Source: Clostridia bacterium (GTDB lineage: Bacteria; Bacillota; Clostridia; CAKSNL01; HGM11501). Taken from it: a DNA stretch of 28,135 nucleotides. Position 1 is the stretch's first letter. The number at the start of each line of letters is the position of its first letter. The notes under the pieces were generated by a model. That model did no database searches. It was given only the letters and a program-made list of their open reading frames with translations, and had not been told where the DNA came from. Of this stretch, positions 605 through 27,054 are shown piece by piece. The stretch is from NCBI GenBank assembly GCA_045545475.1, contig JAZQAZ010000012.1:1-28135 (forward strand), written 5' to 3'. The position numbers and the translations under genes were made by a program.

Positions 605-2899
605 ATGGCAACAACTTATGAAAGAAAAAGAAGGAAGCACAGCAACATATTATACACAATTATTACCGCTGTATTAATATGTGCGGTCGTTTTCGCCATG
701 GTTGGAAACTTCTACCTTCTGGCAGAGAACGATGCTTATGAGATGCTACATCTGCAGACAAAGCAAATCAAGGATGACCTTACCTTGCAGCTTAAATCCG
801 ACAGAGAAAATCTCGTAACCATGGCAAACTTTGCTTCAAAGCTCTATTCCGATGGCGATGACTACAGCTTAATGTTCGAATCCTTCAAGCCTATCGGCCT
901 GCTTTCAAACATCGGAATACTTAATCCCGACAATACCTTTGTTACCAAAATGGGAGAAATAGACCTTTCAGGCAAAATCAGCTTTTCCGAAGAAGCACTC
1001 CGCGGAGAATACATAACAGGCAGAGTGGCCGACCTTACTAGAGATGGAGAGGAAATCATAAGAACCGCCGTTCCGATTAAGTCAAACGGAGAAACCGTGG
1101 GGATTTTATACGGTGTAATCCGCCTTGATGTAATAGGAGAAAAATATGTAAATATGGCAAGGGAACTTGACGCACAGCTTTTCGTGTACGATAAAGCAAC
1201 CGGAAAATTTGTGATAGACACAATAAGCAAGATTCCCGGTGAGCTCAAAAGCTTCAAGGACAGGGAGTTCAATAGCGGTTACACATACGAAGACTTTGAA
1301 AACAATGACAGCGGCTTTTCATCCTTTAAATCAAAATTTACCGGAGAGGATCTTTACATCCATTATTCCACCTTAGAGGATTTTGACTGGGGAATTATGC
1401 TCGCCCGCTATGAATCCCAGGTATTTGCAGAAACTCACGTAATATCCAGAAACTTGCTTTTCGCCTTTGGTGCAATCCTCATAATTCTAACAGTTTACCT
1501 TAACATTATTATGCAAAAGGAGAAAAACAGAAGAAAGTTAAACGAAGAGTCTTCCGAAATAAGAAAGCTTCTTCTCGAAATAAATCAACAGCACGAAAGT
1601 ATTACCTCCGCTCTTAAGAGAATAAAGGAATTTACCTCTTCCCGCTCCGCATTTTTTGCAGACACCGACGGAGAGGACCATCACTATATCAAACCTTCGC
1701 TTTCCGACATGCTTCTTATGGGCGAAGACAGAACATATTTCATCGGTGAGCTTTTCAGATATGCCGCCAACATAAATGCAGAAAAGCTTCCCATCGGATT
1801 TATGCAGATTCTTCCCAACAACCATCTTTTAAAAACAAATCCCGAGCTTTATCAGTTTTTAACTGTTCACGGAATAGACGATGTATCCTTTGCAATATTG
1901 TCAGATAAGAATAATCATGTCAGCATCCTCGGCACAATAAACCCGAAAAAAAGCTCTATGGTAAGAAGACTTATTGCAGATATTGCAGTATGTTTCTCCA
2001 TTGCGATATTCAACAAAAAGCACCTTAACAAAACTGTTCTTGCCGCAACTACCGACGCTCTTACGGGTGCTCTTAACCGAGTTGCGTACAAGAAGGACAT
2101 TCTGACTTTTGACGAAGAAAAGCCTGAAAATTTCTCCTGCATTTATATAGATGTCAACGAGCTTCATATAAGAAACAACAAATACGGCCATGCCGCAGGC
2201 GATGAGATGCTTATTTATATAGCCAATTCCCTGAAAGAAGTGTTCTTCGGCCATCACATCTACCGTATGGGCGGAGACGAATTTTTAGTATTTGCAGAAA
2301 ACACATCACACGAAAATATCAAAAATGATATAGAAACATTTATAAGCCATCTTAACCCCAGAGGCTATCATGTTGCCATCGGAACTTCCTTCAGAAGCCG
2401 TAATACCAACTGCGAGGAAATGGTGCACGAGGCCGAGGTCAGAATGTATGAGGCAAAAGCCGAATATTATCAGAAAAAAGAAAACACAAGCATAGCAAAG
2501 GATGCGGACAATTACAGCCAGATAAAAACCGGCATCAGCGAAATCGACACCATGATTTCCGTTCTCAAGGAACACTATAACGGAATCTATAAGGTTTCTC
2601 TTGTAACCGATAAGGCACACAGGATTCTTATGCCCGCTTATCTTGGCTACAGCGAAAACGAGGACCATTTCTCAAACCTCCTGAAAACATACATAAATGA
2701 GATTGTGCATCCGGACTCACACAGAGCGGTTACAAACTTCCTTAACTATGATGCAATAAGAAGACTTATCTCAGAAGGAACAACCCCTTCTATCACATAC
2801 AAAAAGGTAAATGGTGACTCCGTAACCTTAAGTGTATACAGCCTTACGGAAGATACCGATAATGTAAGCGATACCCTTTGGGTATTTGCAAAAGCCTGA
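605..2899 (+). CDS. Membrane sensor diguanylate cyclase (TM - Cache-like - TM - GAF-like - GGDEF - C-terminal PAS-like)
   Basis: Two hydrophobic helices flank an extracytoplasmic domain. Motifs TDALTGALNR, DVNELHIRNNKYGHAAGD and intact RMGGDEF (GGDEF at 2270-2284). ATG 605 after AGGAAAG preferred to TTG 578. Confidence 0.9.
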   Translation: MATTYERKRRKHSNILYTIITAVLICAVVFAMVGNFYLLAENDAYEMLHLQTKQIKDDLTLQLKSDRENLVTMANFASKLYSDGDDYSLMFESFKPIGLLSNIGILNPDNTFVTKMGEIDLSGKISFSEEALRGEYITGRVADLTRDGEEIIRTAVPIKSNGETVGILYGVIRLDVIGEKYVNMARELDAQLFVYDKATGKFVIDTISKIPGELKSFKDREFNSGYTYEDFENNDSGFSSFKSKFTGEDLYIHYSTLEDFDWGIMLARYESQVFAETHVISRNLLFAFGAILIILTVYLNIIMQKEKNRRKLNEESSEIRKLLLEINQQHESITSALKRIKEFTSSRSAFFADTDGEDHHYIKPSLSDMLLMGEDRTYFIGELFRYAANINAEKLPIGFMQILPNNHLLKTNPELYQFLTVHGIDDVSFAILSDKNNHVSILGTINPKKSSMVRRLIADIAVCFSIAIFNKKHLNKTVLAATTDALTGALNRVAYKKDILTFDEEKPENFSCIYIDVNELHIRNNKYGHAAGDEMLIYIANSLKEVFFGHHIYRMGGDEFLVFAENTSHENIKNDIETFISHLNPRGYHVAIGTSFRSRNTNCEEMVHEAEVRMYEAKAEYYQKKENTSIAKDADNYSQIKTGISEIDTMISVLKEHYNGIYKVSLVTDKAHRILMPAYLGYSENEDHFSNLLKTYINEIVHPDSHRAVTNFLNYDAIRRLISEGTTPSITYKKVNGDSVTLSVYSLTEDTDNVSDTLWVFAKA

Positions 2900-2910
2900 C
2901 GGAGAAAGAG

Positions 2911-3288
2911 ATGCTGCAACTTATAAAATTCGGAATAGTGGGCGTTATTGCCGCAATCATTGATGTGGGAGTTTTGGTTATACTCAAGGAATTTTTCCTT
3001 GTTGATGTGCTCATCTCATCCGCTATCTCCTTTTGTGTTTCAGTTAGTGTAAACTATATCTTAAGCATGGCCTTTGTTTTTAAAAGCAAAACCGAAAATA
3101 AGATTAAGGAATTTGTTATTTTCTTTTTCTTAAGCGTCGGCGGTCTTTTGTTAAACCAGTTTATTTTGTGGATTGGTGTGAAATTTACCACCATCTATTA
3201 TCTGGCCGTAAAAATTTTCGCCATGATAATTGTTCCGGTTTATAATTTTATAACAAGAAAGATATTTCTTGAATCAAAAGAAAAATGA
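2911..3288 (+). CDS. gtrA: GtrA family lipid-linked sugar flippase
   Basis: About 125 aa with 4 hydrophobic segments; QLIKFGIVG, NYILSMAFVF, YNFITRKIF. GGAG RBS at 2901 before ATG 2911. Confidence 0.9.
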   Translation: MLQLIKFGIVGVIAAIIDVGVLVILKEFFLVDVLISSAISFCVSVSVNYILSMAFVFKSKTENKIKEFVIFFFLSVGGLLLNQFILWIGVKFTTIYYLAVKIFAMIIVPVYNFITRKIFLESKEK

Positions 3289-3298
3289 GCGTGAAAGC

Positions 3299-3841
3299 AT
3301 GAATTCTGTTTTTAAAAAAGACCTTTTCAGATATTACGGAAAAGACGGAGAACCGTTTCTTAAAAAGCTTTTCCGTCCTCTTGAAATAAAGTACATTTCC
3401 GTTTTCAGAAAAGCAAACCTTTGTAAATTTTTACCCTTGAAACTGTTTTATATGTTAAGGCTTTTTGCTCTTTCCAAAAAAACTCACATTCAAATTCCGG
3501 CAAGAACTTCTATCGGAGAAGGATTTTATATAGGTCATCTCGGCCGTGTTATTGTCCATCCCGACGCCGTTTTGGGCAAAAACATAAACATCGGCACCGG
3601 AGTAACCATAGGAGCAGAAAACCGGGGAAAGAGAAAGGGTGCTCCAAAAATTTCCGATAACTGTTGGATTGGAACAAACGCAGTTATAGTCGGAAACGTG
3701 AATATTGGAAGCGATGTTTTAATCGCTCCGTTAACCTATGTTAATTTCGACGTTCCCGATCACAGCATCGTAGTAGGAAATCCCGGAAAAATAATTCCCA
3801 GAGAAAACGCTACAAAAGATTATATCTGTAATCGTGTGTAA
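3299..3841 (+). CDS. Hexapeptide-repeat (serine acetyltransferase-like) O-acetyltransferase, probably acting on the polysaccharide
   Basis: IGEGFYIGH, IGTGVTIG, PKISDNCWIGTNAVIVGNVNIG, VVGNPGKI left-handed beta-helix repeats; short form typical of EPS loci. Confidence 0.85.
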   Translation: MNSVFKKDLFRYYGKDGEPFLKKLFRPLEIKYISVFRKANLCKFLPLKLFYMLRLFALSKKTHIQIPARTSIGEGFYIGHLGRVIVHPDAVLGKNINIGTGVTIGAENRGKRKGAPKISDNCWIGTNAVIVGNVNIGSDVLIAPLTYVNFDVPDHSIVVGNPGKIIPRENATKDYICNRV

Positions 3842-3868
3842 AACATATAAACCTTTGGAGGTGGCACC

Positions 3869-5374
3869 TTGGCAGGCAAAGACACAAGAATAAAGCACAA
3901 CGTAATTTCTTCTCTGATTTATCAGGTGGTATTAATATCTTTAAGTTTCCTTCTCCCGAGATTATATCTTGAAAATTTCGGTTCAGAAGTAAACGGTGTT
4001 CTTTCCACCATAAAGCAGATATTTACATATATGTGCTTACTCGAAGCAGGCGTTGGCCTTGCCACAACACAGGCACTTTACAAAAGAATCGGCGAAAAAA
4101 ATTACAAAAGTGCAAGTGCGGTTCTTTCCGCAACCCACAGCTATTATATTAAAACCGGCATAATTTATTCTGTCATCGTGCTTTTTATAGCCCTCTTTTA
4201 CGCATACGCCGTTCCCACATCAATTGACAGTAACATTTTGTTTTTAATTGTTTTATTAAACGCCGTTCCTTCAATTTTCAGCTATTTTGTTCAGGCAAAA
4301 TACAGAATACTTATGGAGGTTGACGGAAGAAAGTATATAATAAACAATTCGGAAACCGTACTGCAGCTTGCATCAAATATCGGCAAAATACTTGTTCTCC
4401 TTTTAACAGACAGCCTTATTCTAATCCAGCTTGTCTATTGTATAATTGCACTTATGCAACTTATATTCCTTTACTTTTATGCAAAAAACAGATATACCTG
4501 GCTTAATTTAAAGGAAAAACCGGACTTTGAAGCAATCTCGCAGAAGAACTCCGTTTTGGTGCATCAACTTTCCGGCATGGTATTTAACAATACCGATGTT
4601 TTGCTTATCTCTTTCCTTTGCGACTTTAAAGCCGTAAGCATCTACGCCATTTACAACATCTTCTTTTCTCAGGTGCAAAATTTCATAACAAGCATTGTTT
4701 CATCATTCACTTTTGCACTGGGGCAGATGTTTAATACCGACAGAGAAAAATTCGACAGAATGTATAATGTATATGAAACTTTTTACATAATGATAACCTT
4801 CCTCATATACACTCTTATGGCAGTATTCCTTCTTCCCCTCATACAGATTTACACCGGAGGAATAAACGATGCCGAATATACAAACACGCTCCTTTTACTG
4901 CTTTTTGTTATAATGAGTCTTTTGGCAAACAGCAAGCTTCCCGCAAACGGTATTATAGAGTATTCGGGGGATTTTGCAAAAACACGTTCATTTGCAATTT
5001 GGGAAATGATTATAAATCTCAGCTTTTCCGTTGTTTCAATTATATATTTCGGAATATGCGGTGCCCTGGCAGGAACAGTTGCTGCCCTTTTGTACCGAGG
5101 TATAGTGACAATTTACTATTCCAATAAAATGGTTTTAAAAAGAAAATTAATTTGCACATATAAAATCATATTTACCAACAGTGCGGTTTTCGCCCTGGTT
5201 ATGGCAATATTTTACGTGGATACCTTTTCCGGCCTTCCCTTTTTACAATTGTTGGTTAAAGGCATTATCCACTCCATATGGATTGCAGCTCTTTACCTGA
5301 TTGCAAACTTCATATTTAACAAAGCTGCTTTTAAAACGTTTTTTGAAATATACAGGGAGAAAAGAAACAAATGA
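3869..5374 (+). CDS. wzx: Wzx repeat-unit flippase (MOP/PST family)
   Basis: 501 aa with many TM segments; GSEVNG..LLEAGVG motif; TTG start after GGAGG. Confidence 0.85.
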   Translation: MAGKDTRIKHNVISSLIYQVVLISLSFLLPRLYLENFGSEVNGVLSTIKQIFTYMCLLEAGVGLATTQALYKRIGEKNYKSASAVLSATHSYYIKTGIIYSVIVLFIALFYAYAVPTSIDSNILFLIVLLNAVPSIFSYFVQAKYRILMEVDGRKYIINNSETVLQLASNIGKILVLLLTDSLILIQLVYCIIALMQLIFLYFYAKNRYTWLNLKEKPDFEAISQKNSVLVHQLSGMVFNNTDVLLISFLCDFKAVSIYAIYNIFFSQVQNFITSIVSSFTFALGQMFNTDREKFDRMYNVYETFYIMITFLIYTLMAVFLLPLIQIYTGGINDAEYTNTLLLLLFVIMSLLANSKLPANGIIEYSGDFAKTRSFAIWEMIINLSFSVVSIIYFGICGALAGTVAALLYRGIVTIYYSNKMVLKRKLICTYKIIFTNSAVFALVMAIFYVDTFSGLPFLQLLVKGIIHSIWIAALYLIANFIFNKAAFKTFFEIYREKRNK

Positions 5375-6105
5375 GTATTCCAAAAGTAATTCACTATTGC
5401 TGGTTTGGCAAAGGAAAAATGCCTCCCCTTTCCGAAAAGTGCATAAAAAGCTGGAAAAAGTACTGTCCGGAATATGAGATAGTCTGTCACAATGAAGACA
5501 ATTTTGATATTACGGAAAACCTGTATGCAAAGGAAGCCTATGAAGCCGGCAAATGGGCCTTTGTCAGCGATTATGTGAGGCTTAAGGTTTTGTATGAAGA
5601 AGGCGGAATTTATCTTGATACCGACGTTGAACTTATAAAGCCGCTTGATGCTTTGATTGCCGAAACAGGCTACATGGGGTTCGACGATAACGGCGTTATT
5701 TCAACGGGCCTTGGCTTTGCCGCAGAAAAGGGCAATGAGCTTGTCGGGCATCTGCTTTCTGACTATGACGACATATCCTTTATCCTTCCCGACGGAAGCT
5801 ATGATATGACGCCTTGCCCCGACAGAAACACACAAACCATGATTAAGCTTGGCTTCAATCCCGATATTAAGGATCAGGTATTTATGGGTATACACATGCT
5901 TCCCGAAGATTTCCTTTGTCCCGTAAAGTATTATACGGGAAAGAAGGTAATAACAAAAAACACCTGTTCAATCCATCATTTTTCTGCGTCGTGGACATCT
6001 GCCACGGCAAAACGTACACTTTTTATAAAACGTCTCGTAGGCGTAAAAATGTATGATAAATTATATGGAAAGTTCCTTCATAAATTCAAATGGCTGGAGT
6101 GGTAA
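5371..6105 (+). CDS. GT32 (Och1-like, DxD) glycosyltransferase
   Basis: IPKVIHYCWFG, WAFVSDYVRL, GGIYLDTDVE, HHFSASW. Confidence 0.92.
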   Translation: MSIPKVIHYCWFGKGKMPPLSEKCIKSWKKYCPEYEIVCHNEDNFDITENLYAKEAYEAGKWAFVSDYVRLKVLYEEGGIYLDTDVELIKPLDALIAETGYMGFDDNGVISTGLGFAAEKGNELVGHLLSDYDDISFILPDGSYDMTPCPDRNTQTMIKLGFNPDIKDQVFMGIHMLPEDFLCPVKYYTGKKVITKNTCSIHHFSASWTSATAKRTLFIKRLVGVKMYDKLYGKFLHKFKWLEW

Positions 6106-6107
6106 TT

Positions 6108-7658
6108 TTGCCGGAAAAAACACTTAAGAAACTCTATTCTTACATATTGCCCCAATGGAAGGTATGCTTTTTTTCCTCTCTCATAGTTGGGTTTATTGCA
6201 CATTTAATAAAAATAACCTCCTGGCTTCCCAACTGGGATTCTTTGGTTTTCAGATATAATTCCCAGAATATGATAGGCCTGGGTAGGTGGTTTTTACCCG
6301 TTGTCTGCTCAGTAAGTTCTTTTTACGACTTGCCATTTCTCAACGGTCTTTTTGCGATTTTATTCCACGCCCTCGGTGCAGTGATGATATGCAGAATACT
6401 TAATATAAGAAAAAAAGTCAGTGCGGCGTTAATCGGTGCAATAATCGTTTCTTTCCCGACGGTTACCTCTGTCCTTATGTATAACTACGTTGCCGACGGT
6501 TACGGTTTTTCCTTTTTCCTTTCGGTTCTTGCGGCATATTTTATGACAAAGGAAAAGCCTGGATACATTTTATCTTCTCTCCTTATCGCTTTATCGGTTG
6601 GAATTTACCAGGCATATATAACCGTTACAATAATGCTGGTTTTACTCAAATTAATCGACGAACTGGTTTATAACTCCAACAGCTGCTCCTGCGTTATAAA
6701 AAAGGCTTTGCATGCACTTTTTTCAGGAGCCATCGGAATAATTCTTTACGCTTTGATACTAAAGCTTTCTCTCAGTATTTTTTCAGCAGAACTTCTTGAC
6801 TATCAAGGCATAAACGAAGCATCTTCATTATCGGGAATTGATTTTGCAGCTTCCCTTTACAGAATCAAAGAAACCTTTATAAATTGCTTCTTTGATTTTT
6901 CAGAAGGTTTAAATATATTTGTTTTCTTAAATATTTTCGTCCTTATATTCACGTTAGTTTATTACATTAAACACATAATTAAAAGTGTGCTTTATAAAAA
7001 GCCGTTAAATATCCTTTTGCTTTTAATTCTTGGTGTTATGCTTATATTCGGTGCAGGAGCATTGGCTTTTATAAATGCCGGAGTAGACTATCACAATCTC
7101 ATGCTTATGGGCTACTCTGTCTTTTACCTCTTCTTCCTTATCATTTATGAGCGAGGCGAAGAAAAAAGCGAAAAGCACTCTTCTTTAAAGTGCTGGATTG
7201 TACTTATAACAGCACTGGCCATAATTTTAAATCAGGTAGTTATAGCGAATGTAAGTTACCACAAGGCTCAGATAGCCTATGAAAAATCCTATGGGATGCT
7301 CATCCGCATTGCAAACCGCATAGAAGAAACTCCCGATTCTGAAAACTGCGAAAGAATCCTGGTGATAGGTGCACTTTCTAAAAGCGAAGATTACAGCGTT
7401 AACCTGACACCCGATATTACCGGAATAACCGACGGATACATTTTAAGGGCAGACGACGAAACAGTTGGACAAAGCGTACTTACCAGTGCACTTAACGATT
7501 ACTGCGGTAAAAGCTACAGCTTTATAAGCGGCACGGAAAAAGACGAGTTTATGAAAAAAGAAGAAATAAAAGCCATGCCGTTATGGCCGCTTCAAGGTTC
7601 AGTTGCCGTGTTGGATGATACAGTTATTATCAAGCTTTCGGCGGAAGGTGAAAATTAA
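6108..7658 (+). CDS. GtrII-like polytopic GT-C glycosyltransferase (lipid-phosphate-sugar donor)
   Basis: Multiple TM helices; WD..GRW near the N-terminus; LSVGIYQAY; soluble C-terminal domain. Start TTG 6108 after GGAG (ORF track start 6090). Confidence 0.75.
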   Translation: MPEKTLKKLYSYILPQWKVCFFSSLIVGFIAHLIKITSWLPNWDSLVFRYNSQNMIGLGRWFLPVVCSVSSFYDLPFLNGLFAILFHALGAVMICRILNIRKKVSAALIGAIIVSFPTVTSVLMYNYVADGYGFSFFLSVLAAYFMTKEKPGYILSSLLIALSVGIYQAYITVTIMLVLLKLIDELVYNSNSCSCVIKKALHALFSGAIGIILYALILKLSLSIFSAELLDYQGINEASSLSGIDFAASLYRIKETFINCFFDFSEGLNIFVFLNIFVLIFTLVYYIKHIIKSVLYKKPLNILLLLILGVMLIFGAGALAFINAGVDYHNLMLMGYSVFYLFFLIIYERGEEKSEKHSSLKCWIVLITALAIILNQVVIANVSYHKAQIAYEKSYGMLIRIANRIEETPDSENCERILVIGALSKSEDYSVNLTPDITGITDGYILRADDETVGQSVLTSALNDYCGKSYSFISGTEKDEFMKKEEIKAMPLWPLQGSVAVLDDTVIIKLSAEGEN

Positions 7659-8525
7659 ATGATATATTTTTGTGCCGACGACTACGGCCTTTGCGAAAGT
7701 GCCTCAGCTCACATCAGGCAATGTGTTGATGAAGGTATTCTCAATAAAGTCAGCGTATTTCCCAATTTCGAAAAGGTCGATTTGATAAAATTAACAGAAA
7801 ATAAAAATATCAGGCTGTCACTTCACTTAAATCTTGTTGAGGGAAGATGCATGGCCGACACAGCCAAAATAGGTCTTATTGCCGATAAAGACGGAAACTT
7901 TCTTCACACCTTTGGCGGTCTTTTTAGCCTTTGGCTCTTTCACGGGAAAAAATTCCGCAAAGAAGTTTACGAAGAAATTAAGGCTCAAATTTCATACTGG
8001 ATGAGCATTTTACCAAAAGGCGTCCCCCTCTCCATTGACAGTCATCAGCATACTCACATGATTCCATCTGTGTTCGATGCCTTAATCAAGGTTCTTAATG
8101 ACGAAGGAATAAATCCCGAATATATAAGAATTCCTGCAGAACCGCTGCTTCCATACATAAAAACACCTTCGCTTTATTTCACTTACAGTCCCGTAAACAT
8201 AATAAAGCAATGGCTTTTGAAATTTCTGTGGCTGATTAATAAAACACGCACAAAGGAAAAAAACGTTCCGACAGCCCTCTTTTTCGGAATACTTTTTTCA
8301 GGAAAAATGGATGAAAAACGCGTAAACAAAATTCTTCCGGAATATAAAAAATTGGCCGATAAGAAGAAATGGGATATAGAGGTTTTGTTTCATCCCGGAT
8401 ACATGGACAAATCAAAACCTGACTTTAAGGAAAACCACATAGTTTTTGAAAATTTTTATTTATCAAAAGAAAGAAAGACAGAATTTGACTCTGCAATGAA
8501 TATATCAGAAAGAAGTGTTAAGTAA
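7659..8525 (+). CDS. YdjC/ChbG/HpnK family carbohydrate deacetylase
   Basis: ADDYG, SLHLNL, IDSHQHTH, EVLFHPG motifs. Confidence 0.9.
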   Translation: MIYFCADDYGLCESASAHIRQCVDEGILNKVSVFPNFEKVDLIKLTENKNIRLSLHLNLVEGRCMADTAKIGLIADKDGNFLHTFGGLFSLWLFHGKKFRKEVYEEIKAQISYWMSILPKGVPLSIDSHQHTHMIPSVFDALIKVLNDEGINPEYIRIPAEPLLPYIKTPSLYFTYSPVNIIKQWLLKFLWLINKTRTKEKNVPTALFFGILFSGKMDEKRVNKILPEYKKLADKKKWDIEVLFHPGYMDKSKPDFKENHIVFENFYLSKERKTEFDSAMNISERSVK

Positions 8526-9205
8526 TGGCTTATATCGATCAGGATAAAGTTGATGAAAAAACAAGGAAAAAGCTGGAAGAAATCATCGAAAAATCATATG
8601 CCACATTTTGGAGAAGCAAAAGACTTTTTGACATCTTTTTTGCCACATTGATTCTGCTGTTTTTCCTTCCATTGATGGTGATAATTGCAATTGTAATAGT
8701 AATTGACGATCCTTCAGCAGGCCCTTTTTACAAGCAGATAAGAGTAGGCCGTCACGGCGAGGAATTTTATATGTATAAATTCCGTACCATGAAGGCAAAT
8801 GCGGACAAGATGATTGATGAGCTTGCAAAGCAGAACGAAATGGACGGGCCTGTGTTCAAAATAAAGGACGATCCCAGAATAACAAGAGTGGGCAAATACT
8901 TAAGAAAGCTTTCTCTTGACGAGCTTATGCAGTTTTTCAACGTTTTGAAGGGCGATATGACATTGGTCGGCCCCAGACCTCCGCTGCCCAGAGAGGTTGA
9001 ACACTATACCGATTATCAGAGACTCAGACTCCTTGTTACTCCCGGTCTCACCTGCACCTGGCAGATTTCCAAAAACAGAAACGACATCCCCTTTGAACAA
9101 TGGGTTGAAATGGATATTGAATACATACAGACAAGAACCTATCTCAATGACATTAAGATAATGCTTAAAACTCCGATAGTAATGCTTACGGCTACCGGAA
9201 GATAA
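8525..9205 (+). CDS. Priming (polyprenyl-phosphate hexose-1-phosphate) transferase, short form
   Basis: KRLFDI, single TM, YKFRTM, DDPRITRVG, LDEL, LVGPRP, PGLTCTWQ; TAATG coupling to the upstream gene. Confidence 0.95.
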   Translation: MAYIDQDKVDEKTRKKLEEIIEKSYATFWRSKRLFDIFFATLILLFFLPLMVIIAIVIVIDDPSAGPFYKQIRVGRHGEEFYMYKFRTMKANADKMIDELAKQNEMDGPVFKIKDDPRITRVGKYLRKLSLDELMQFFNVLKGDMTLVGPRPPLPREVEHYTDYQRLRLLVTPGLTCTWQISKNRNDIPFEQWVEMDIEYIQTRTYLNDIKIMLKTPIVMLTATGR

Positions 9206-9225
9206 CAAATTTTGGAGTGAATAAA

Positions 9226-10344
9226 ATGAAAGTTGCCATGATTGGCCATAAAGTTGTACCATCAAGACGAGGCGGAATAGAAAATGTCCTTACCACGCTT
9301 TGTCCTATACTTTGCGAAATGGGCCTTGACGTTACCTGCTATAACCGTTCGTCTGACAAAGTTGAAAATGAATATGTCGGAACCGTGCATGACAAAATGT
9401 ATAAAGGCGTAAAGCTTAAAACCGCATGGACGATAAATTTCCGTGGGTTTGCTGCAATGATAGCATCCTTCACGGCGGCAATTGCGGCATCCTTCGGGAA
9501 ATACGATGTTATTCACTTCCACGCGGAGGGTCCCTGTGCGGCATTATGGATACCAAAACTTTTCGGCAAAAAATGTATAGCTACAGTTCACGGACTTGAC
9601 TGGCAGAGAGAAAAATGGGGCAAGGGTTTTGCTTCAAAATATATCAAATTCGGAGAAAAGGTTTTAGCCAAATATGCAGATGAGGTTATCGTTTTAAGCG
9701 ATGCTGCCCACGATTATTTCAAAGAAACATACAACCGTGAAACCACTGTTATTCATAACGGAATAAGCCGTCCCGAAAGAAAAGATGCCAATATTATAAC
9801 CGAAAAATACGGTCTTTCGAAAGACGGATATATATCCCTTGTTTCAAGGCTTACTGCAGAAAAAGGCGTTCACTATCTTATTGACGCCTACAAGATGATT
9901 GCGACGGATAAAAAGCTTGTAATCGCAGGAGATACCAGCGATACGGATGAATATGTGAAAATGCTTAAAGAAAAGGCCGAAGGAAACCCGAATATTATTT
10001 TCACGGGCTTTATTTCAGGAGATACATTAAAGGAAATCTATTCCAACGCTTATATAAATGTACTTCCCTCCGACCTTGAGGGGATGTCTTTATGTCTCCT
10101 TGAGTCTCTTGCCTACAGAAATGCGCTTTTATGTTCGGACATTCCCGAAAACACTTCCGTTGCCGAGGACAAAGCACTTTATTTCAAAAAAGGCAATATA
10201 GAAGATCTGGCAGAAAAGCTTAAATTGCTGTGCAATGACGCTTCCCTGGTCTCCTCCCTCCGTGACGGTGCGGATGACTTCATTTTAAGTAAATACAACT
10301 GGTCAGATGTTGCAAAAGCAACTTACGAGCTTTATCAAAAATAA
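9226..10344 (+). CDS. GT4 glycosyltransferase
   Basis: GGIE, HGLDWQREKW, SRLTAEKG, PSDLEGMSLCLLESL (E-x7-E). ATG 9226 after GGAG (track GTG 9217). Confidence 0.92.
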   Translation: MKVAMIGHKVVPSRRGGIENVLTTLCPILCEMGLDVTCYNRSSDKVENEYVGTVHDKMYKGVKLKTAWTINFRGFAAMIASFTAAIAASFGKYDVIHFHAEGPCAALWIPKLFGKKCIATVHGLDWQREKWGKGFASKYIKFGEKVLAKYADEVIVLSDAAHDYFKETYNRETTVIHNGISRPERKDANIITEKYGLSKDGYISLVSRLTAEKGVHYLIDAYKMIATDKKLVIAGDTSDTDEYVKMLKEKAEGNPNIIFTGFISGDTLKEIYSNAYINVLPSDLEGMSLCLLESLAYRNALLCSDIPENTSVAEDKALYFKKGNIEDLAEKLKLLCNDASLVSSLRDGADDFILSKYNWSDVAKATYELYQK

Positions 10345-10363
10345 ATGTAAAGGTTTGTTTAAT

Positions 10364-11587: not shown

Positions 11588-11605
11588 TTAAAGGAGGAAT
11601 AAACG

Positions 11606-12961: not shown

Positions 12962-12973
12962 AGGAGGATAGCA

Positions 12974-14824: not shown

Positions 14825-14875
14825 TATTAAAGATTTCCTTAAATCAGGCACTTTATGAGAAAGGAGGGCAACTTT

Positions 14876-16180
14876 GTGGAAAAAAAAATTCTCGGAAAAG
14901 CAAAAACATTTTATTTCATGCTTGTTGCTGTGATGATGTATTACTTTCTCAATGAATATATTGATATAGGTCTGCACATCACATTCCGCCACGCCTTTGC
15001 CCTCGTCCTCTTTGCAAGTGCAACAGTTTTGTTTTTATATAAACCAAATATCGCAAGGGGTTTTACCGCCTTCACTGATGCCTGTATTTATAGTCTACCC
15101 CTCCTTGTAACCACATCGGTTTCTCTTTTTGTATGGTTCATGGAAACGGTGGATGTTGGCGTAATTTCCAGAGGTCTTTCAAGTTCTTTCATATATTCCA
15201 ATATGCTCTCCTTTGCTTTGGGAGCAGGTGCACTGCTTTACATATTCGGAAATAACGGTATATGGTATAACCTTGCAGCTATTCTAATTGCAAATATTTT
15301 AATGCTGATAAAGGTTATTGCCGAAAACGGAATAGGCAGCTTTTTTTCGGAATTTGTAACGCTGGTTGTAACCTTTGCAGGCGTCACCGGTGACATTATT
15401 GTTCAGGCGGAAATCCACGAGCTTGCATTTTGTCTCGGAGCATATCTTATATACATGCTCTATAAACCCAAGAAAAGTATAATATATTTTATTTTCCTTT
15501 TCCTGAGCCTTTTCTGCTTTCTTGCGGCATTCAAGAGAATTGCCATAATAGCCATTGCAATTGCCCTTTTCTTTGGGTACCTGTTAAAATTCATCGCTAA
15601 ATATAACAAAAAAACTGCGGAAATACTCGTTATAATACTGTCGGTTGCAGTAATAATTCTTCTTATAGGCTATATCGCACTTATAAAAATGGATGCCTTT
15701 GAACTTCTTGAAGAAGCAGGAATTAACACCAGCGGCCGTGTGGAAATTTACAATGCTGTCGATGAATTTTATGAGTTCAATCCGGGATTTCTCGGAAACG
15801 GAATAGGCTTTCTCACCTACCAGCTTAATACCTTCATGAATGTGGGAGTTGCCTCAGTTCACAACGACTTTCTTCAGCATTTCATCGACCTTGGATTCTG
15901 GGGATACATCATCTGGCTCATCACAATGACTCTCACAAGAACATGCTATTTCGGAAGACGCGGCAATGTGGAAAATGCCATAATTTCATTTATACTTACC
16001 CTTTATCTTATTATTGTATCCACCACCGACAACACCATGAACTATCCGCTTTTAACAGGAGTTCTTGCAATTTTGATGATGGGAGAAAGCTTTGGAGAAA
16101 ATGTACGATACAGAGAAAATAAAATGTTCGGTTATATTTCCGAAGCTAACCGGGGAGAGAAAGGAGATTCTGTTTTATGA
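14876..16180 (+). CDS. wzy: Wzy polymerase (O-antigen ligase-like)
   Basis: Polytopic; TSGR..IY, FLGNGIG and HNDFLQ..DLG motifs; GTG 14876 after AAGGAGG (track ATG 14855). Confidence 0.8.
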   Translation: MEKKILGKAKTFYFMLVAVMMYYFLNEYIDIGLHITFRHAFALVLFASATVLFLYKPNIARGFTAFTDACIYSLPLLVTTSVSLFVWFMETVDVGVISRGLSSSFIYSNMLSFALGAGALLYIFGNNGIWYNLAAILIANILMLIKVIAENGIGSFFSEFVTLVVTFAGVTGDIIVQAEIHELAFCLGAYLIYMLYKPKKSIIYFIFLFLSLFCFLAAFKRIAIIAIAIALFFGYLLKFIAKYNKKTAEILVIILSVAVIILLIGYIALIKMDAFELLEEAGINTSGRVEIYNAVDEFYEFNPGFLGNGIGFLTYQLNTFMNVGVASVHNDFLQHFIDLGFWGYIIWLITMTLTRTCYFGRRGNVENAIISFILTLYLIIVSTTDNTMNYPLLTGVLAILMMGESFGENVRYRENKMFGYISEANRGEKGDSVL

Positions 16181-17385
16181 AAATTTTAATGGTAAATAAA
16201 TTTCTCTATCCCCGTGGCGGAAGCGAAAGCTATATGCTCTACCTTGCCGAATATCTTAAGAAAATCGGTCACGAAGTTCAGTTTTTCGGCATGTACGATG
16301 AAAACAACACCGTAGCAAATAACGCAGGTTTGTATACTACAAATATGGATTTTCACTCCGAAGGACTAAAAAGATTTCTTTATCCTTTCAAAATCATCTA
16401 TTCCTTTGAAGCAAAAAGGAAAATCATGCAGGTTATAGACGATTTTAAGCCTGACATAGTTCACATGAATAATATAAATTTTCAGCTTACGCCTTCCATA
16501 ATTTACGGCGTAAAGAAAAAAGGTATTCCTTTGGTGCAAACAGTGCACGATTATCAGATGATTTGCCCCAATCACCTTCTATATAATTTTGACAAGAACA
16601 TCCCTTGCGAAAAATGCGTCGGGGGCTCACTATCAAATTGCATAAAAAACAAGTGCATTCACTCATCAACCGTGAAAAGCATTATTGGCGTTATCGAAGC
16701 CAAGCTTTACTCACTGCTTAAAACCTACAAAAAGGTTGACCTTTTTATTTGCCCCAGTAACTTTCTTGAAAAAAAGCTGTTATCGGCAAAAGCATATTAT
16801 AAAGGAAAAACCAAAACTATTCATAACTTCATAAACAAAGAACAGTTTAACTCTAGCGAATTAACCGTTGAAGACTATATCGTTTTTGTAGGAAGGCTTT
16901 CCAAAGAAAAGGGAATTGAAAATATAGCCGGAGCCTCAAAGCTTCTTCCCGAATATAAATTTGTTATTGCAGGAAGCGGCCCGGATGAGGACATGCTTAA
17001 GGACCTTCCCAATGTGAAATTAGCAGGATTCCTCACAGGTGATGAGCTTACATCTCTTATGGGAAAGGCGAAAGTGCTTCTTCTCCCCTCTGTGTGCTAT
17101 GAAAATTGTCCGCTTTCCATACTGGAGGCACATTCCATGGGCGTTCCTGTTGTCACCATGAACTCAGGTGGAATGGCAGAGCTTGTAAAAGACGGTGTAA
17201 CAGGCACTCTCGTCACCGAGCCTACCCCGGAAGGAATTGCATCAAGCATAAAGAAAACCCTAGAAAATGATGATTATTATAATCAGCTTAAAGAAAACTG
17301 CAAAAAGGAAAAAAGTAATATTTTAAGCGTGGAAAGCTACGCAGAAATCCTTATAAAAGAATATGAAAAACTGATTGCGAGGTGA
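16177..17385 (+). CDS. GT4 glycosyltransferase
   Basis: MKILMVNKFLYPRGGSE, VGRLSKEKG, YENCPLSILEA; ATGA overlap. Confidence 0.92.
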   Translation: MKILMVNKFLYPRGGSESYMLYLAEYLKKIGHEVQFFGMYDENNTVANNAGLYTTNMDFHSEGLKRFLYPFKIIYSFEAKRKIMQVIDDFKPDIVHMNNINFQLTPSIIYGVKKKGIPLVQTVHDYQMICPNHLLYNFDKNIPCEKCVGGSLSNCIKNKCIHSSTVKSIIGVIEAKLYSLLKTYKKVDLFICPSNFLEKKLLSAKAYYKGKTKTIHNFINKEQFNSSELTVEDYIVFVGRLSKEKGIENIAGASKLLPEYKFVIAGSGPDEDMLKDLPNVKLAGFLTGDELTSLMGKAKVLLLPSVCYENCPLSILEAHSMGVPVVTMNSGGMAELVKDGVTGTLVTEPTPEGIASSIKKTLENDDYYNQLKENCKKEKSNILSVESYAEILIKEYEKLIAR

Positions 17386-17390
17386 AAAAA

Positions 17391-18449: not shown

Positions 18450-18459
18450 GGTGAAAGAT

Positions 18460-19479: not shown

Positions 19480-19485
19480 AAACCT

Positions 19486-20550: not shown

Positions 20551-20569
20551 ATGGCAGGAGTAAGACAAA

Positions 20570-21937
20570 ATGAATTTTTTTGAATATCCTTATGTTATTA
20601 TAACGATTCTTGCAATGTTTTTCTTTGCTCTCGGATTGTTTGGTCTGTACTTTACCATGAAGTCAGTGATGACGTCACGAGGCTCGACAAAAAAAAGCTT
20701 TTGCAGTATCGGTAAAATAGAAAATGATTTTGAAAAGGCAACTTCCCTGGGAAAAAACTGTACTCTCATTTACATTTCCACATCCCTTGACAGTGCTGAA
20801 AGGCTTTATTCGGAATCAAGGGCACGAAGAATACACGAACAAATTAAAAATATTCTTTTCAGCCACCTGTGCCTTACCGTAAACGGTGAGCTTTCCCTTT
20901 ACGGAAGCGAAAGCTTCATCGCCTTTAACAGCTTAAGTCCCCAGAAATTAAACGTACGCATCGAAGAATGTTTTGAAGAAATCAATAAAGCTTTTGCAAA
21001 GCACGGTGCTGTTAATATCGTCAGCATACATTTCGGATATATAGTAACCGGCTCAGCAGAAGTATCTTTCAAAACGGCTCTGGGAAGAGCAAAGCAATCC
21101 TGCAGCATAGCAGAAGACAAAGATGTTCTTTATCACCGGTGGGACAGTGCAAACGGAAAAGAATTTGAAAGAAAAATCAAGATTGAAAACAACATACAAA
21201 ATGAAATTGACAACAACAGATTTTTCCTTGAATATCAGCCCATATTGGATGCCGGAACAGAAAAAATTATCGGGGCGGAAGTTTTATCCCGTCTTAATTC
21301 CGAAACAGAAGGTGTTCTCACCCCCTACTTTTTCCTTTCTGCGGTAAATAATGTGGGACTGAACGAGAAATTTGACTACTATATTTTTGAAAAAAACTGT
21401 AAATGGATTGCAAGCGACAAGGAAAAGCGTTCAAAATATGTTTATACGATAAACTTTTCCCGAAACACTCTTTGCGATGAAAACCTTTCAGAAAATATAA
21501 TAAACATAGTTGACAAATACGGCATAGACTATTCCTGCATCGCCGTTGAAATACTGGAGGACAAGGACCTTTCCGACAACGAAAAAACCGTAATGGTGAA
21601 TAATTTAACCCAACTTAAGAAAAAGGGGGTTTTAATCCTTCTTGATGATTTCGGCAAAGGCTATACAGGGTTCGGCGACCTTAACGATTTTGATATAAGC
21701 ATCGTAAAAATTGATAAAGACATAACTCAAAATGCAATAACCGAAACCGGATTTGTAATCCTAAAAAACATTATCAGAACCGCTCATGATCTTGGTTTTA
21801 AGACACTGTGCGAAGGAATAGAAACTAAAGAGCACAAAAACATTGTAATAAAGGCCGGATGCGATATGTTCCAGGGCTATTACTTCTATCGCCCGATGCC
21901 GGTCACTCAATTGGAAACATTGTTCTTGGAAAAGTAA
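20570..21937 (+). CDS. Membrane-anchored degenerate-GGDEF/EAL c-di-GMP phosphodiesterase
   Basis: N-terminal TM; eroded GGDEF fold (LYGSESF); EAL motifs YQP, EVLSR, INFS, EILE, DDFGKGY, KID, EGIE, QGY. Confidence 0.88.
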   Translation: MNFFEYPYVIITILAMFFFALGLFGLYFTMKSVMTSRGSTKKSFCSIGKIENDFEKATSLGKNCTLIYISTSLDSAERLYSESRARRIHEQIKNILFSHLCLTVNGELSLYGSESFIAFNSLSPQKLNVRIEECFEEINKAFAKHGAVNIVSIHFGYIVTGSAEVSFKTALGRAKQSCSIAEDKDVLYHRWDSANGKEFERKIKIENNIQNEIDNNRFFLEYQPILDAGTEKIIGAEVLSRLNSETEGVLTPYFFLSAVNNVGLNEKFDYYIFEKNCKWIASDKEKRSKYVYTINFSRNTLCDENLSENIINIVDKYGIDYSCIAVEILEDKDLSDNEKTVMVNNLTQLKKKGVLILLDDFGKGYTGFGDLNDFDISIVKIDKDITQNAITETGFVILKNIIRTAHDLGFKTLCEGIETKEHKNIVIKAGCDMFQGYYFYRPMPVTQLETLFLEK

Positions 21938-21946
21938 GGTGATTTT

Positions 21947-22879
21947 ATGTTATCCGTAATCATTCCCGCCTACAACGAAGAAAAGTGCATAAAGCTTGTA
22001 CACTCTGCAATACACTCTCTTCTTACGGCAAATAACATTGAAAGTGAATTTATCTTTATAGATGACGGCTCCGGTGATGAAACCTATAAAATGATAACTG
22101 AGCTTTCAGAAGAGAAAGAGAATGTGACAGGTCTGCACTTTTCCCGAAATTTCGGAAAAGAAGCCGCAATATCCGCAGGCCTTTCTGCCGCATGCGGAGA
22201 CTGTGCCGTCGTAATAGATGCCGATCTCCAGCATCCGCCGGAGAAAATCGTTGAAATGTATCGCCTGTGGGAGCAAGGTGCAGAAATAGTAGAAGGAATA
22301 AAAAACGAACGAGGCCGGGAAGGTAAACTAAAAAGCTTCGGTGCCGGAATTTTCTACTCCGCGATAAGCCGTATGGCAGGCTTCGATATGGCCAATTCTT
22401 CGGACTTTAAGCTTCTGGACAGAAAAGTTATCGATGTGCTTAACAAAATGCCTGAGAGAGGCTTTTTCAGGGCAATATCCTACTGGGTGGGATATAATAA
22501 GGGAACAGTTTATTATGATGTGGCAGAGCGTGTTGAAGGGGAATCCAAATGGTCAACCAAAGGGCTTTTTAAATACGCCCTTTCAAACATCACCTCCTAT
22601 TCCACCGCCCCTATGCAGATAGTAACGTTTCTTGGCTTTGTAATGCTTGCAATCTCGGTAATTTTCGGTGTCTGGGCACTTATCGATAAAATTATCGGCA
22701 GAGCACTGGAAGGCATGACAACGGTAATAATAATTACCATCTTTATAGGTAGCATCATAATGATAAGCCTTGGAATAATAGGCTACTACATCGCCCGCAT
22801 CTACGAAGAGATAAAAGGAAGGCCGAAGTACATAATTTCTTCCACGGTAAAGAGCGTGGAAAAATCAGATAAACTTTAA
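21947..22879 (+). CDS. gtrB: GtrB-like polyprenyl-phosphate glycosyltransferase (GT2 with 2 C-terminal TMs)
   Basis: IPAYNEE, DDGS, FSRNFGKEAA, DADLQHPP, two TMs, IYEEIKGRPKY. Confidence 0.9.
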   Translation: MLSVIIPAYNEEKCIKLVHSAIHSLLTANNIESEFIFIDDGSGDETYKMITELSEEKENVTGLHFSRNFGKEAAISAGLSAACGDCAVVIDADLQHPPEKIVEMYRLWEQGAEIVEGIKNERGREGKLKSFGAGIFYSAISRMAGFDMANSSDFKLLDRKVIDVLNKMPERGFFRAISYWVGYNKGTVYYDVAERVEGESKWSTKGLFKYALSNITSYSTAPMQIVTFLGFVMLAISVIFGVWALIDKIIGRALEGMTTVIIITIFIGSIIMISLGIIGYYIARIYEEIKGRPKYIISSTVKSVEKSDKL

Positions 22880-22913
22880 GGGAAATAAAAATATACAAGG
22901 AGGAGTACAGAAA

Positions 22914-23843
22914 ATGGAAAAGATAATAATGATTATAGCCATATCTGCATTTTTTGTTCAATCAATATTTCTGGCAACACTGTTTTTCCGCATAAAGAAA
23001 ATCGAAAAAAACAGGGCAACGGCTGCTTTGGAGACAGAAAAGAAGAATGTTGCCCGCGATGTGGAAACGGCAAAGGCTACCGAAAGCATCTTAGAGGGCA
23101 TTAAAAATAACGAGTTTAAGATGTATCTTCAGTTTGTGGTTGATAACAAGACCAAAAGGCTTGTTTCGGCAGAAGCTCTTTCAAGATGGGATAAGCCGGA
23201 AGAAGGAGTAAAAGGCCCCGGTTTTTATATCGCTCATATGGAAAAGACCGGCCTTATCAGCAAGCATGACTTTTATATGTTTGAGCTTGCCTGCCGTCAG
23301 CTGGAAAAGTGGAAAGGCACCGAATATGAGGATATTTCCATTTCCTGCAACTTCACAAGAATAACCCTTTCTGAAGAAGATTGCATTGATAAGCTAAAAA
23401 AGATTATGGACTCATATGATTTCGATAAATCCAAGCTGGCAATCGAAATAACGGAGGATGCCATAGAAAAGGATATGGAAACCGCAAAGAAGAACGTAAG
23501 GCTCTGTAAAGAGCTTGGCTTCAAGATTTATCTTGACGACCTTGGAAGCGGCTATACTTCCCTTTCCAATCTTTGCGACTATCCCATTGACATAGTTAAA
23601 ATCGACCGTGATATTCTCCTTAAGACCGATACCAAACGTGGCAAAGATTTACTTTCCGGTATAATTGCACTGGCACATAATCTTGATATGCCTGTAATCT
23701 GCGAGGGCGTAGAAACGGAGGAGCAGAACACTCTTGTGTCAGACTCACACTGTGACTACATCCAGGGCTGGTACTATACAAAGGCTCTTCCCTTGGAGGA
23801 ATGCGAGGAATTTTTCAAGGTTCATCATTCAAAATACTGTTAA
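22914..23843 (+). CDS. Membrane-anchored stand-alone EAL c-di-GMP phosphodiesterase
   Basis: N-terminal TM and short helical linker; EALSR, NFT, EITE, DDLGSGY, KIDR, EGVE, QGW; AGGAGG RBS. Confidence 0.9.
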   Translation: MEKIIMIIAISAFFVQSIFLATLFFRIKKIEKNRATAALETEKKNVARDVETAKATESILEGIKNNEFKMYLQFVVDNKTKRLVSAEALSRWDKPEEGVKGPGFYIAHMEKTGLISKHDFYMFELACRQLEKWKGTEYEDISISCNFTRITLSEEDCIDKLKKIMDSYDFDKSKLAIEITEDAIEKDMETAKKNVRLCKELGFKIYLDDLGSGYTSLSNLCDYPIDIVKIDRDILLKTDTKRGKDLLSGIIALAHNLDMPVICEGVETEEQNTLVSDSHCDYIQGWYYTKALPLEECEEFFKVHHSKYC

Positions 23844-26950: not shown

Positions 26951-26969
26951 ATTTTTCGCCTCAATGTTG

Positions 26970-26998
26970 ATGATATCACATTAAAAAAGAAATGTAAA
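26970..26998 (-). promoter_or_regulatory. sigmaA-type promoter of the aldolase-dgoK-BNR operon
   Basis: Minus strand TTTACA (26998-26993), 17-bp spacer, TGa-TATCAT (-10 hexamer 26975-26970), then GAGG RBS. Confidence 0.55.
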
Positions 26999-27019
26999 TT
27001 GCACTTTCGGTAAAAAATA

Positions 27020-27048
27020 TTGCCAAACCTGCAAATATGTGCTATGAT
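27020..27048 (+). promoter_or_regulatory. sigmaA-type promoter of the AraC gene
   Basis: TTGCCA (27020-27025), 17-bp spacer, TGc-TATGAT (-10 hexamer 27043-27048). Confidence 0.6.
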
Positions 27049-27054
27049 ATATTT

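Follow-up and report, generated by a model that had tools for sequence, protein, structure and literature searches.

A Wzx/Wzy polysaccharide locus of Clostridia with a Wzc-like co-polymerase that bears a degenerate GGDEF domain and with its own predicted c-di-GMP enzymes

Wzc, the polysaccharide co-polymerase (PCP) of class 2a in the Escherichia coli group 1 capsule and colanic acid systems (PDB 7nhr, 9r62, 9r68), works with Wzx and Wzy and consists of a first transmembrane helix (TM1), an alpha/beta base with long helical hairpins, a second transmembrane helix (TM2) and then a cytoplasmic regulatory domain, a bacterial tyrosine kinase (BY-kinase) with a tyrosine tail. In Firmicute capsules the corresponding set, of class PCP-2b, is CpsC/CpsD with CpsB and CpsA. 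Degenerate GGDEF domains that bind cyclic di-GMP (c-di-GMP) are known from PelD, Listeria PssE and Bacillus subtilis YdaK, which are membrane-anchored receptors, bind through an RxxD I-site and serve synthase-dependent polymers; LapD and FimX are degenerate EAL receptors of c-di-GMP, with protease control and pili as their outputs. The available part of one survey treats c-di-GMP activation as a synthase-dependent trait and tyrosine-kinase modules as typical of capsule PCPs (PMC8892547), and a 2025 review of capsule chain length, in its accessible sections, mentions c-di-GMP for synthases only (PMC12220298). According to excerpts on Caulobacter, the holdfast is made by a wzy-type pathway (PMC6372794) in which a glycosyltransferase, HfsJ, binds c-di-GMP (PMC11481889), which is direct post-translational c-di-GMP control of such a pathway; the receptor there, HfsJ or HfsK, is a soluble glycosyltransferase or acyltransferase and not a co-polymerase, and in the same excerpts the hfs locus is without a built-in cyclase or phosphodiesterase. 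Here we analyse contig JAZQAZ010000012.1 of a Clostridia bacterium (assembly GCA_045545475.1; C12 in our numbering), the whole of which, 28,135 bp, is called the window below, from a host genome of 2.74 Mb that is 95% complete. It carries a Wzx/Wzy polysaccharide locus in which ORF12, a Wzc-like co-polymerase, bears a degenerate GGDEF domain at the position of the Wzc kinase, and in which a predicted cyclase and two predicted phosphodiesterases are encoded as well. This anatomy is real, conserved and apparently undescribed. The first-pass annotation of the DNA had proposed it as a candidate new system, and we found no description of a PCP fused to GGDEF or EAL in open-access papers and bioRxiv preprints, although direct c-di-GMP control of a wzy-type pathway as such is known from HfsJ.

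The locus comprises 20 ORFs on the + strand, numbered ORF1 to ORF20 in gene order and spanning 578/605 to 23843; adjacent ORFs either overlap or are separated by no more than 34 nt. By Pfam and NCBIfam its content is that of a Wzx/Wzy heteropolysaccharide locus joined by four GGDEF/EAL genes, so that the first-pass description, a co-directional set of priming transferase, Wzx, Wzy, six glycosyltransferases and four GGDEF/EAL genes with an intact cyclase first and two EAL proteins near the end, was correct. It was also correct in finding no tyrosine-kinase module: Pfam and NCBIfam detected no BY-kinase, PHP phosphatase or LCP gene inside the locus, one of each existing elsewhere in the genome, and nowhere in the window is a PCP encoded with a Walker-A kinase and C-terminal tyrosine cluster, as in the PCP-2a and PCP-2b classes. 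Nor does the locus belong to the synthase-dependent type (Bcs, Alg, Pga, Pel, Pss), as its GT2 proteins are about 350 aa long with GT2-type Pfam domains only and no PilZ match occurs genome-wide. Four details were absent from that annotation, namely the degeneracy of the ORF12 GGDEF domain, the 'GSESF' stretch of ORF18, a Gtr-type system and a membrane metallophosphoesterase (MPE) in the operon.

ORF12 directly precedes ORF13 (14855..16180, + strand), the Wzy polymerase, which is the sole Wzy_C match of the host genome (41.1 bits vs a cut-off of 31.7). The proposal that it is a co-polymerase-GGDEF fusion holds by fold and by matches among its relatives, and is not supported by Pfam on the proteins themselves, ORF11 and ORF12 giving no Wzz match even at E up to 10. 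In a 50%-clustered protein library, residues 1-460 of ORF12 retrieved 652 representatives at E <= 0.001, with lengths that cluster near 450-480 aa or 590-700 aa; Pfam Wzz (PF02706) was matched at E <= 0.001 by 6 of 35 scanned representatives, including two above the cut-off, and, in the N-terminal alignment, by 9/31 members at E <= 0.01. Family profiles run against PDB sequences retrieved no PCP, one giving GGDEF chains only and another chance matches. Since full-length fold searches filled with GGDEF chains, the N-terminal part (residues 1-460, 12974..14353, + strand) was modelled and searched alone. The AF2 model (pLDDT 85.3) has the PCP arrangement of two TM helices around an alpha/beta base and long helical hairpins, and the 13 best distinct Foldseek entries were all PCPs (Wzc E 5e-6, full-length Wzz 9e-4, WzzE 3e-3). 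VIA-align superposed residues 2-460 of the model on residues 19-451 of the Wzc chain with Z 13.6 and rmsd 10.7 over 254 aligned residues, and gave Z 11.8 for KpsE, about 10.3 for WzzE and at most 9.8 for unrelated helical chains; such Z values are middling for helical proteins, and the assignment is made because the match list is consistent and the coverage runs from TM1 to TM2. The alignment stops where the Wzc kinase starts, and in ORF12 a GGDEF fold comes next (residues 461-616, 14354..14824, + strand; Pfam GGDEF 42.5 bits), whose model superposes on 5euh with Z 18.8 and rmsd 2.4 over 149 residues. A proline-rich motif is expected before TM2 in PCPs; there is no proline in residues 408-431 of ORF12, nor in the family consensus there. 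With Wzc as its best structural match, the N-terminal module of ORF12 is confirmed, at the level of structural models, as a Wzc-like polysaccharide co-polymerase. It differs from Wzc in bearing a dead GGDEF domain and not a BY-kinase with a tyrosine tail, in having neither the Pfam Wzz match nor the proline before TM2, and in its company of a kinase-less paralogue and a phosphoesterase in a Gram-positive-type host, hence without Wza.

The kinase-less paralogue is ORF11 (11606..12961, + strand), which has two TM helices around a large ectodomain, no cytoplasmic domain and no Pfam match. It is a distant paralogue of the ORF12 N-terminus (22% identity over 390 aa, E 1e-4), and its counterpart in distant loci is the first member of a tandem pair; both ectodomains are about twice the length of the corresponding part of the host genome's own CpsC (267 aa). 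When ORF11 and ORF12 1-460 were modelled as a complex, each partner with its own alignment, the best of three controls had an ipSAE of 0.00 and the pair one of 0.69 (runs 0.69, 0.72 and 0.66), a score that may reflect likeness to the solved homo-oligomeric PCP rings (Wzz, Wzc) and not this pair. At least 79% of the contacts agreed between runs, the partner pLDDT was at least 73, and the modelled interface follows the helical hairpins and base domains. In the calibration of the tool, the mark was attained by 116/157 solved complexes vs 2/215 mismatched pairs. The model thus supports a predicted heteromer of ORF11 and ORF12.

At the GGDEF position ORF12 has Y-N-G-N-G-S-F, which is not a catalytic motif, and G[DE]EF was found in the C-terminal part of 0/75 family representatives of 560 aa or more; as far as motifs tell, the domain is catalytically dead throughout the family. 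In an alignment of 70 fused family members, the basis of all counts that follow, the first part of the domain is conserved (D468 in 63, N475 in 68, R476 in 62), as are N509 (50), G517 (56) and D518 (55), which we take to be the guanine-contact positions, and further Y541 (59), N542 (65), F547 (55), R598 (61) and L600 (67). A 'YNG.GQF' signature is conserved in the fused members, and the first metal aspartate, D501 in ORF12, is not. The dead form is kept across a family of 652 cluster representatives and has therefore been selected for something other than catalysis. ORF12 resembles PelD, PssE and YdaK as a membrane-anchored dead GGDEF protein inside a polysaccharide operon with cyclase and/or phosphodiesterase, and departs from them in having no RxxD at the I-site and in being fused to a PCP of the Wzy pathway. 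Right after TM2 and before the dead domain stands G-R-x-x-D (residues 455-459, window 14336-14350), with G455 in 65 of the 70 members, R456 in 66 and D459 in 57 (10 have E instead). The three cyclases of this genome that are probably active do not have this motif, which is RxxD-like but unusually placed.

On the same strand lie the predicted genes for making and removing c-di-GMP. ORF1 (605..2899, + strand) is a predicted membrane sensor diguanylate cyclase (DGC) with a GGDEF match of 62.8 bits, a dCache_1 match of 26 bits, which is below cut-off, and an intact 'RMGGDEF', the GG[DE]EF of cyclases. The ATG at 605, originally chosen as its start, is favoured by stops that precede it in several ortholog matches and by AGGAA 12 nt upstream. 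The C-terminal ~140 aa after its GGDEF (residues about 630-773, window 2500-2899) have no Pfam or NCBIfam match. The predicted phosphodiesterases are ORF18 (20570..21937, + strand; Pfam EAL E 1.4e-54), in which the stretch before the EAL domain is degenerate GGDEF-like, with 'GSESF' and no GG[DE]EF, and ORF20 (22914..23843, + strand; Pfam EAL E 8.7e-60), a stand-alone EAL protein. EAL phosphodiesterases carry the motifs E(A/V)L, N, ExxE, DD(F/L)G, K, EG(V/I)E and QG; all of these can be read in ORF18, as EVL, N, ExxE, DDFG, K, EGIE and QG, and ORF20 has the full set as well. ORF1, ORF18 and ORF20 are all membrane-anchored. The locus holds two of the four GGDEF matches of the host genome and both of its EAL matches; the other two GGDEF proteins, on contigs C44 ('GGEEF') and C3 ('GGDEF'), are likely active cyclases by their motifs. 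PilZ and HD_5 (HD-GYP) gave 0 matches in the host genome, and Rfam at gathering thresholds gave 0 in the window, so there is no c-di-GMP riboswitch leader. Genome-wide riboswitch searches with RF01051 and RF01786 also gave 0, the RF01051 negative being weak, with no match in any control genome.

A search for close relatives with a single protein, which reaches close relatives only, returned 80 loci and 202 relatives. Most come from metagenome-assembled genomes that were recovered from the gut of goat, sheep, deer, cattle and buffalo; their labels include Clostridia, Oscillospiraceae and Acutalibacteraceae. Among the 46 loci whose flanks are complete, ORF4-5 and ORF8-18 were present without exception, the PCP-GGDEF fusion ORF12 and the GGDEF-EAL protein ORF18 included, ORF6 was present in 45 and ORF7 in 41; ORF20, which is near the edge of the fetched range, was present in 25. 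Linkage was counted in 31 further genomes that bear the locus and belong to 14 GTDB families. Their 62 EAL matches divide into 47 that lie no more than 20 kb from the PCP gene, 6 that adjoin the cyclase ortholog on a different contig and 9 elsewhere, some of which are probably contig breaks, and 29 of the 31 genomes have an EAL gene within 20 kb of the PCP gene. A cyclase ortholog occurs in 25 genomes, in 18 of them within 15 kb on the same contig, and may lie upstream, downstream or paired with a short EAL gene; as its position differs between genomes and it is nevertheless linked, the linkage has been kept through rearrangement. Conservation of the GGDEF/EAL genes with the locus had been named in advance as one check on a local c-di-GMP module, and they are conserved (ORF12 and ORF18 in 46/46, EAL near the PCP in 29/31, cyclase in 25/31), which supports their being an integral part of the locus. 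Compared with the host, 24 genomes of other families show identities of 61-74% for RpoB and 66-87% for the PCP module, the PCP value being the higher in 20/24, whereas within the genus the order reverses (RpoB 91-97%, PCP 77-87%). From these identities the whole locus appears to be horizontally mobile among herbivore-gut Clostridia, and the GGDEF/EAL genes have stayed with it through such transfer. GC content is no mark of foreignness (38.8% for the locus vs 40.8%, the 10th percentile of 23 kb windows).

Beyond these close relatives, an ORF12-ectodomain relative at E <= 1e-8 was found in 80 of 399 scored Clostridia genomes, including the complete genomes G283, G134 and G261, the distant ones (22-33% identity) being mostly tandem pairs. 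Eleven distant loci, taken from a separate search of genomes, were annotated (one, G096, for 8 ORFs only). All eleven are Wzy-type, with Bac_transf, Wzy_C or Polysacc_synt and with GT2/GT4 genes, none has an AAA_31/CbiA-type kinase, and in eight a Metallophos protein of about 280 aa lies next to the PCP pair. The second PCP carries GGDEF in G283, G178 and G233, each with the MPE beside the pair; HD_5 is nearby in G283, a dCache-GGDEF-EAL gene in G233, and no other c-di-GMP gene in G178. It carries EAL in G076, G048 and G096, again with the MPE beside the pair, with no other c-di-GMP genes in G076 and HD_5 nearby in G048. In G030 it is long and in G280 it has 583 aa, both without a Pfam match at 1e-7 and without other c-di-GMP genes, the MPE being present beside the pair in G030 and missing in G280. 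It is unfused in G037, with the MPE and no other c-di-GMP genes, in G024, with neither, and in G204, with no MPE and an EAL gene nearby. The library holds further fusions, P0199 (PCP-GGDEF-TM-Metallophos) and P0249, which joins the three loci named above as a fourth PCP-EAL fusion. The EAL domain is nearly intact in G076 and partly degenerate in P0249 (DNFG, KLS); in G048 and G096 the acids of DDFG and EGVE are lost (DKFE/DRFE, CGIE/CGVE), in the same manner as the catalytic acids in LapD and FimX, which have no PCP module. Two different c-di-GMP folds are thus found at the position of the Wzc kinase, predicted to be inactive always in the case of GGDEF and mostly in that of EAL. The recurrence of two largely inactive c-di-GMP folds at one PCP position is the best comparative argument that nucleotides may be sensed there.

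The MPE of the locus itself is ORF10 (10307..11587, + strand), a membrane-anchored calcineurin-like protein matched by Pfam Metallophos and, below cut-offs, by NCBIfam YaeI/LpxG-like models. Because the P0199 fusion has a third TM helix between GGDEF and MPE, and because the stand-alone relatives of about 280 aa have signal-anchor N-termini, the catalytic domain of ORF10 is predicted to lie outside the membrane. Degradation of c-di-GMP by the MPE inside the cell was considered and rejected, as the topology points outside. Paired long PCPs with an outward MPE hint at another mode of chain termination or release in cells of the Gram-positive type. Two side observations concern this protein type. 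ORF10 has an extra N-terminal ~115 aa (residues 1-115, window 10307-10650), lysine-rich, probably cytoplasmic and placed before the TM helix, which the ~280 aa relatives lack. A second signal-anchored MPE of the same kind, 283 aa long, is encoded at C44:25450-27385 (L154:3451-5386) on the - strand, immediately upstream of a gene for a polytopic cyclase that is probably active (GGEEF), with no polysaccharide genes beside it among the three ORFs annotated there; this pair is a second link of this MPE type to c-di-GMP genes, and the idea of polymer release leaves it unexplained.

From these data we infer how the module might work. A different co-polymerase module, ORF11 and ORF12, probably as a mixed ring, would replace CpsC/CpsD. 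The cytoplasmic dead GGDEF of ORF12, standing where Wzc has its tyrosine kinase, would be a guanine-nucleotide switch, most likely for c-di-GMP, and would determine how the PCP ring is assembled or how active it is, and thereby how much polymer is made or how long it becomes. Synthesis of the signal would be local, by the sensor cyclase ORF1, and so would its removal, by the EAL phosphodiesterases ORF18 and ORF20. Outside, ORF10 may cleave the polymer from undecaprenyl diphosphate or recycle the carrier, and so substitute for the missing LCP step. The likeness to CpsC/CpsD, CpsB and CpsA lies in the pathway type and in the place in the assembly line, while none of the four is in the locus, all are scattered elsewhere in the genome, and the ORF11 and ORF12 ectodomains are longer. 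Gating of the PCP by c-di-GMP is the reading that needs the fewest assumptions, and we give it about even credence. The wider proposal, of a third regulatory PCP class in which c-di-GMP acting on a dead GGDEF or EAL domain replaces the tyrosine-phosphorylation cycle of Wzc and CpsCD, a surface MPE replaces the LCP step, and cyclase and phosphodiesterases travel on the same mobile island, we put forward only tentatively.

Several observations weigh against gating by c-di-GMP. The I-site, taken as RxxD five residues before the GGDEF position, is absent: ORF12 has K-S-N-T there, the family columns are variable or gapped, and the catalytic acids are lost as well, so that the ligand of the domain could be GTP, or there could be none. 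In this respect the first-pass idea of a local c-di-GMP module controlling Wzy assembly, sound as to the conservation of the genes with the locus, is weakened. The PCP pair occurs with the MPE and without any c-di-GMP domain in G037, and alone in G024 and G204, and the existence of unfused pairs means that the module works without a c-di-GMP domain. No cyclase ortholog at E <= 1e-40 was found in 6 of the 31 locus-bearing genomes. A full CpsB, CpsC-CpsD and LCP set exists elsewhere in the host genome, and a BY-kinase-like match (E <= 1e-20) in 31 of the 31 other locus-bearing genomes, over the cut-off in 29 and never adjoining the locus. To these are added the weakness of the RF01051 negative and the caveat on the heteromer score, both given above; the single operon, which is inferred from gene spacing alone; and the upstream context, which is missing, the genome being 95% complete and the window an entire contig.

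The alternative that survives best is docking in place of sensing: the dead GGDEF would recruit ORF1 or ORF18 by GGDEF-GGDEF contacts, or bind GTP, for which the degenerate GGDEF of Caulobacter PdeA is a precedent, and c-di-GMP would act on another part, such as a glycosyltransferase. This would agree with the absence of RxxD while N509 and D518 are conserved in most members, and with the anchoring of ORF1, ORF18 and ORF20 in the membrane. HfsJ is such a glycosyltransferase of a Wzy-type pathway that binds c-di-GMP (PMC6372794, PMC11481889), and E. coli NfrB is a described case of local signalling between a DGC and an effector. However, the recurrence of a degenerate EAL at this PCP position is more readily explained by a ligand-binding receptor than by a GGDEF docking site, and neither Pfam nor NCBIfam detected a known c-di-GMP-binding family or domain in the glycosyltransferases of the locus, and we regard docking as possible but unlikely.

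Less probable again is that the dead GGDEF is purely structural, an oligomerisation remnant of an old fusion, and that the cyclase and EAL proteins adjust c-di-GMP throughout the cell for other targets and are co-located by sharing a mobile island. Unfused PCP pairs with the same phosphoesterase, the genomes without a cyclase ortholog (6/31), the two other, likely active cyclases elsewhere in the genome (C44, C3) and the horizontal mobility of the locus are what such a history would leave. But D468, N475, R476, Y541, N542, R598 and L600 form a family-wide signature found in more than 80% of 70 sequences, the domain has been swapped for another c-di-GMP fold and not for unrelated domains, ORF18 is in 46/46 related loci, and no PilZ, HD-GYP or c-di-GMP riboswitch match was found genome-wide, so we consider a mere remnant improbable.

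The usual Firmicute control, acting in trans, has to be weighed against the following inventory. C30:41355-42925 (L006:11355-12925) encodes an orphan pair of a Wzz protein resembling CpsC and a CpsD-like BY-kinase, the kinase having Walker A and a tyrosine cluster at its C-terminus and being the only BY-kinase match over cut-off in the host genome; CpsB is at C2:69112 and the single LCP gene at C8:138567. Among the other locus-bearing genomes the nearest BY-kinase lies about 24 kb from the PCP gene, in G094, and the presence of such a match in 31/31 neither shows nor excludes action in trans. A kinase acting in trans had been named among the findings that would overturn the local c-di-GMP reading, and at the level of presence it exists (CpsC/CpsD on C30, CpsB on C2, a kinase in 31/31 genomes). 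That this CpsC/CpsD pair, with Walker A and tyrosine cluster and outside any glycan cluster, controls the locus together with CpsB, the c-di-GMP genes being a minor layer, is nonetheless very improbable, despite the matches in all 31 genomes (29 over cut-off), because the kinase is never linked to the locus, the locus crosses families without it, the pair is also beside an SLH protein and could serve another glycan locus, on C44, and the 31/31 may be Clostridia background. The neighbours of the C30 pair are genes for an SLH-domain protein, a methyltransferase and a type III glutamine synthetase. The C44 locus (C44:46800-66060; L153) encodes a short priming transferase, three GT4 proteins, a Wzx-type flippase, two pyruvyl transferases and ATP-grasp enzymes, and further an aminotransferase, DUF5693 and a MurJ-like flippase. 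Its product may be a cell-wall polymer, pyruvylated and serving SLH proteins, and the locus could be the client of the orphan CpsC/CpsD and CpsB.

The remaining genes of the locus, all on the + strand, define its product. Chain initiation falls to ORF8 (8525..9205), a short-form priming polyprenyl-phosphate sugar-phosphate transferase (Pfam Bac_transf E 1.2e-64) and one of two Bac_transf genes in the host genome. ORF4 (3869..5374), 501 aa and polytopic, is a Wzx-type (MOP) repeat-unit flippase by way of a relative, with 25% identity over 446 aa (E 3e-24) to L141:6804-8342, itself a Polysacc_synt match; it has no direct Pfam match at threshold, MatE appearing only at E 0.014. Six cytoplasmic glycosyltransferases, starting at 5371, 9217, 16177, 17382, 18451 and 19486, are ORF5 (5371..6105), a DXD enzyme (Pfam Gly_transf_sug E 1.6e-16), the GT4 proteins ORF9 (9217..10344; Pfam Glycos_transf_1 and Glyco_transf_4) and ORF14 (16177..17385; Pfam), and the GT2 proteins ORF15 to ORF17 (17382-18449, 18451-19479 and 19486-20550; Pfam Glycos_transf_2 E 3.5e-39, 3.6e-36 and 5.4e-36). 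ORF3 (3269..3841) is a hexapeptide-repeat O-acetyltransferase (Pfam Hexapep; NCBIfam EpsC/WcaB-like below cut-offs) and ORF7 (7659..8525) a YdjC-like carbohydrate deacetylase (Pfam YdjC E 2e-36). A three-part Gtr-type system is dispersed over the operon, with its flippase part in ORF2 (2878..3288), a GtrA-like small membrane protein (Pfam GtrA_DPMS_TM E 5e-24), a GtrII-like polytopic glycosyltransferase for branch addition outside the membrane in ORF6 (6090..7658; Pfam Glucos_trans_II E 3.4e-47), and a PgfS/GtrB-like GT2 polyprenyl-phosphate sugar synthase in ORF19 (21947..22879; NCBIfam PgfS E 2e-71, below cut-off; Pfam GT2), which suggests that branching with a sugar follows flipping and takes place on the outer side of the membrane. 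The locus is predicted to make a branched, O-acetylated heteropolysaccharide via the Wzx/Wzy route.

Downstream, at 24263-27837, lie genes for a BNR-repeat (sialidase-like) protein, a KDG kinase and a KDPG aldolase on the - strand and then an AraC regulator on the + strand. None of these was found in the 46 related loci; therefore the locus ends at 23843 and these neighbours are host backbone. Scans for promoters and terminators gave no more than chance-level counts (59 vs 55.3, 18 vs 17.5, 20 vs 18.8 and 12 vs 8.4). A perfect 9 bp hairpin (AAAATCTGCC..GGCAGATTTT) stands at 558-579, flanked by a promoter-like site (492-520) and the beginning of the cyclase gene.

Most capsules and O-antigens and many biofilm polymers are products of Wzx/Wzy pathways, and the switching of the PCPs in these pathways is understood only for the tyrosine-kinase types. 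If c-di-GMP does gate ORF12, a PCP with a c-di-GMP-type module would tie Wzx/Wzy assembly directly to the main biofilm signal of bacteria, and its own cyclase and phosphodiesterases would make the locus a compact, self-contained system for testing that link. Should the proposal of a third PCP class also be true, nearly the whole c-di-GMP network of these small-genome gut Clostridia would serve one polymer. The family is large and common in herbivore-gut Clostridia, and the mobile locus may shape surface glycans across the gut community.

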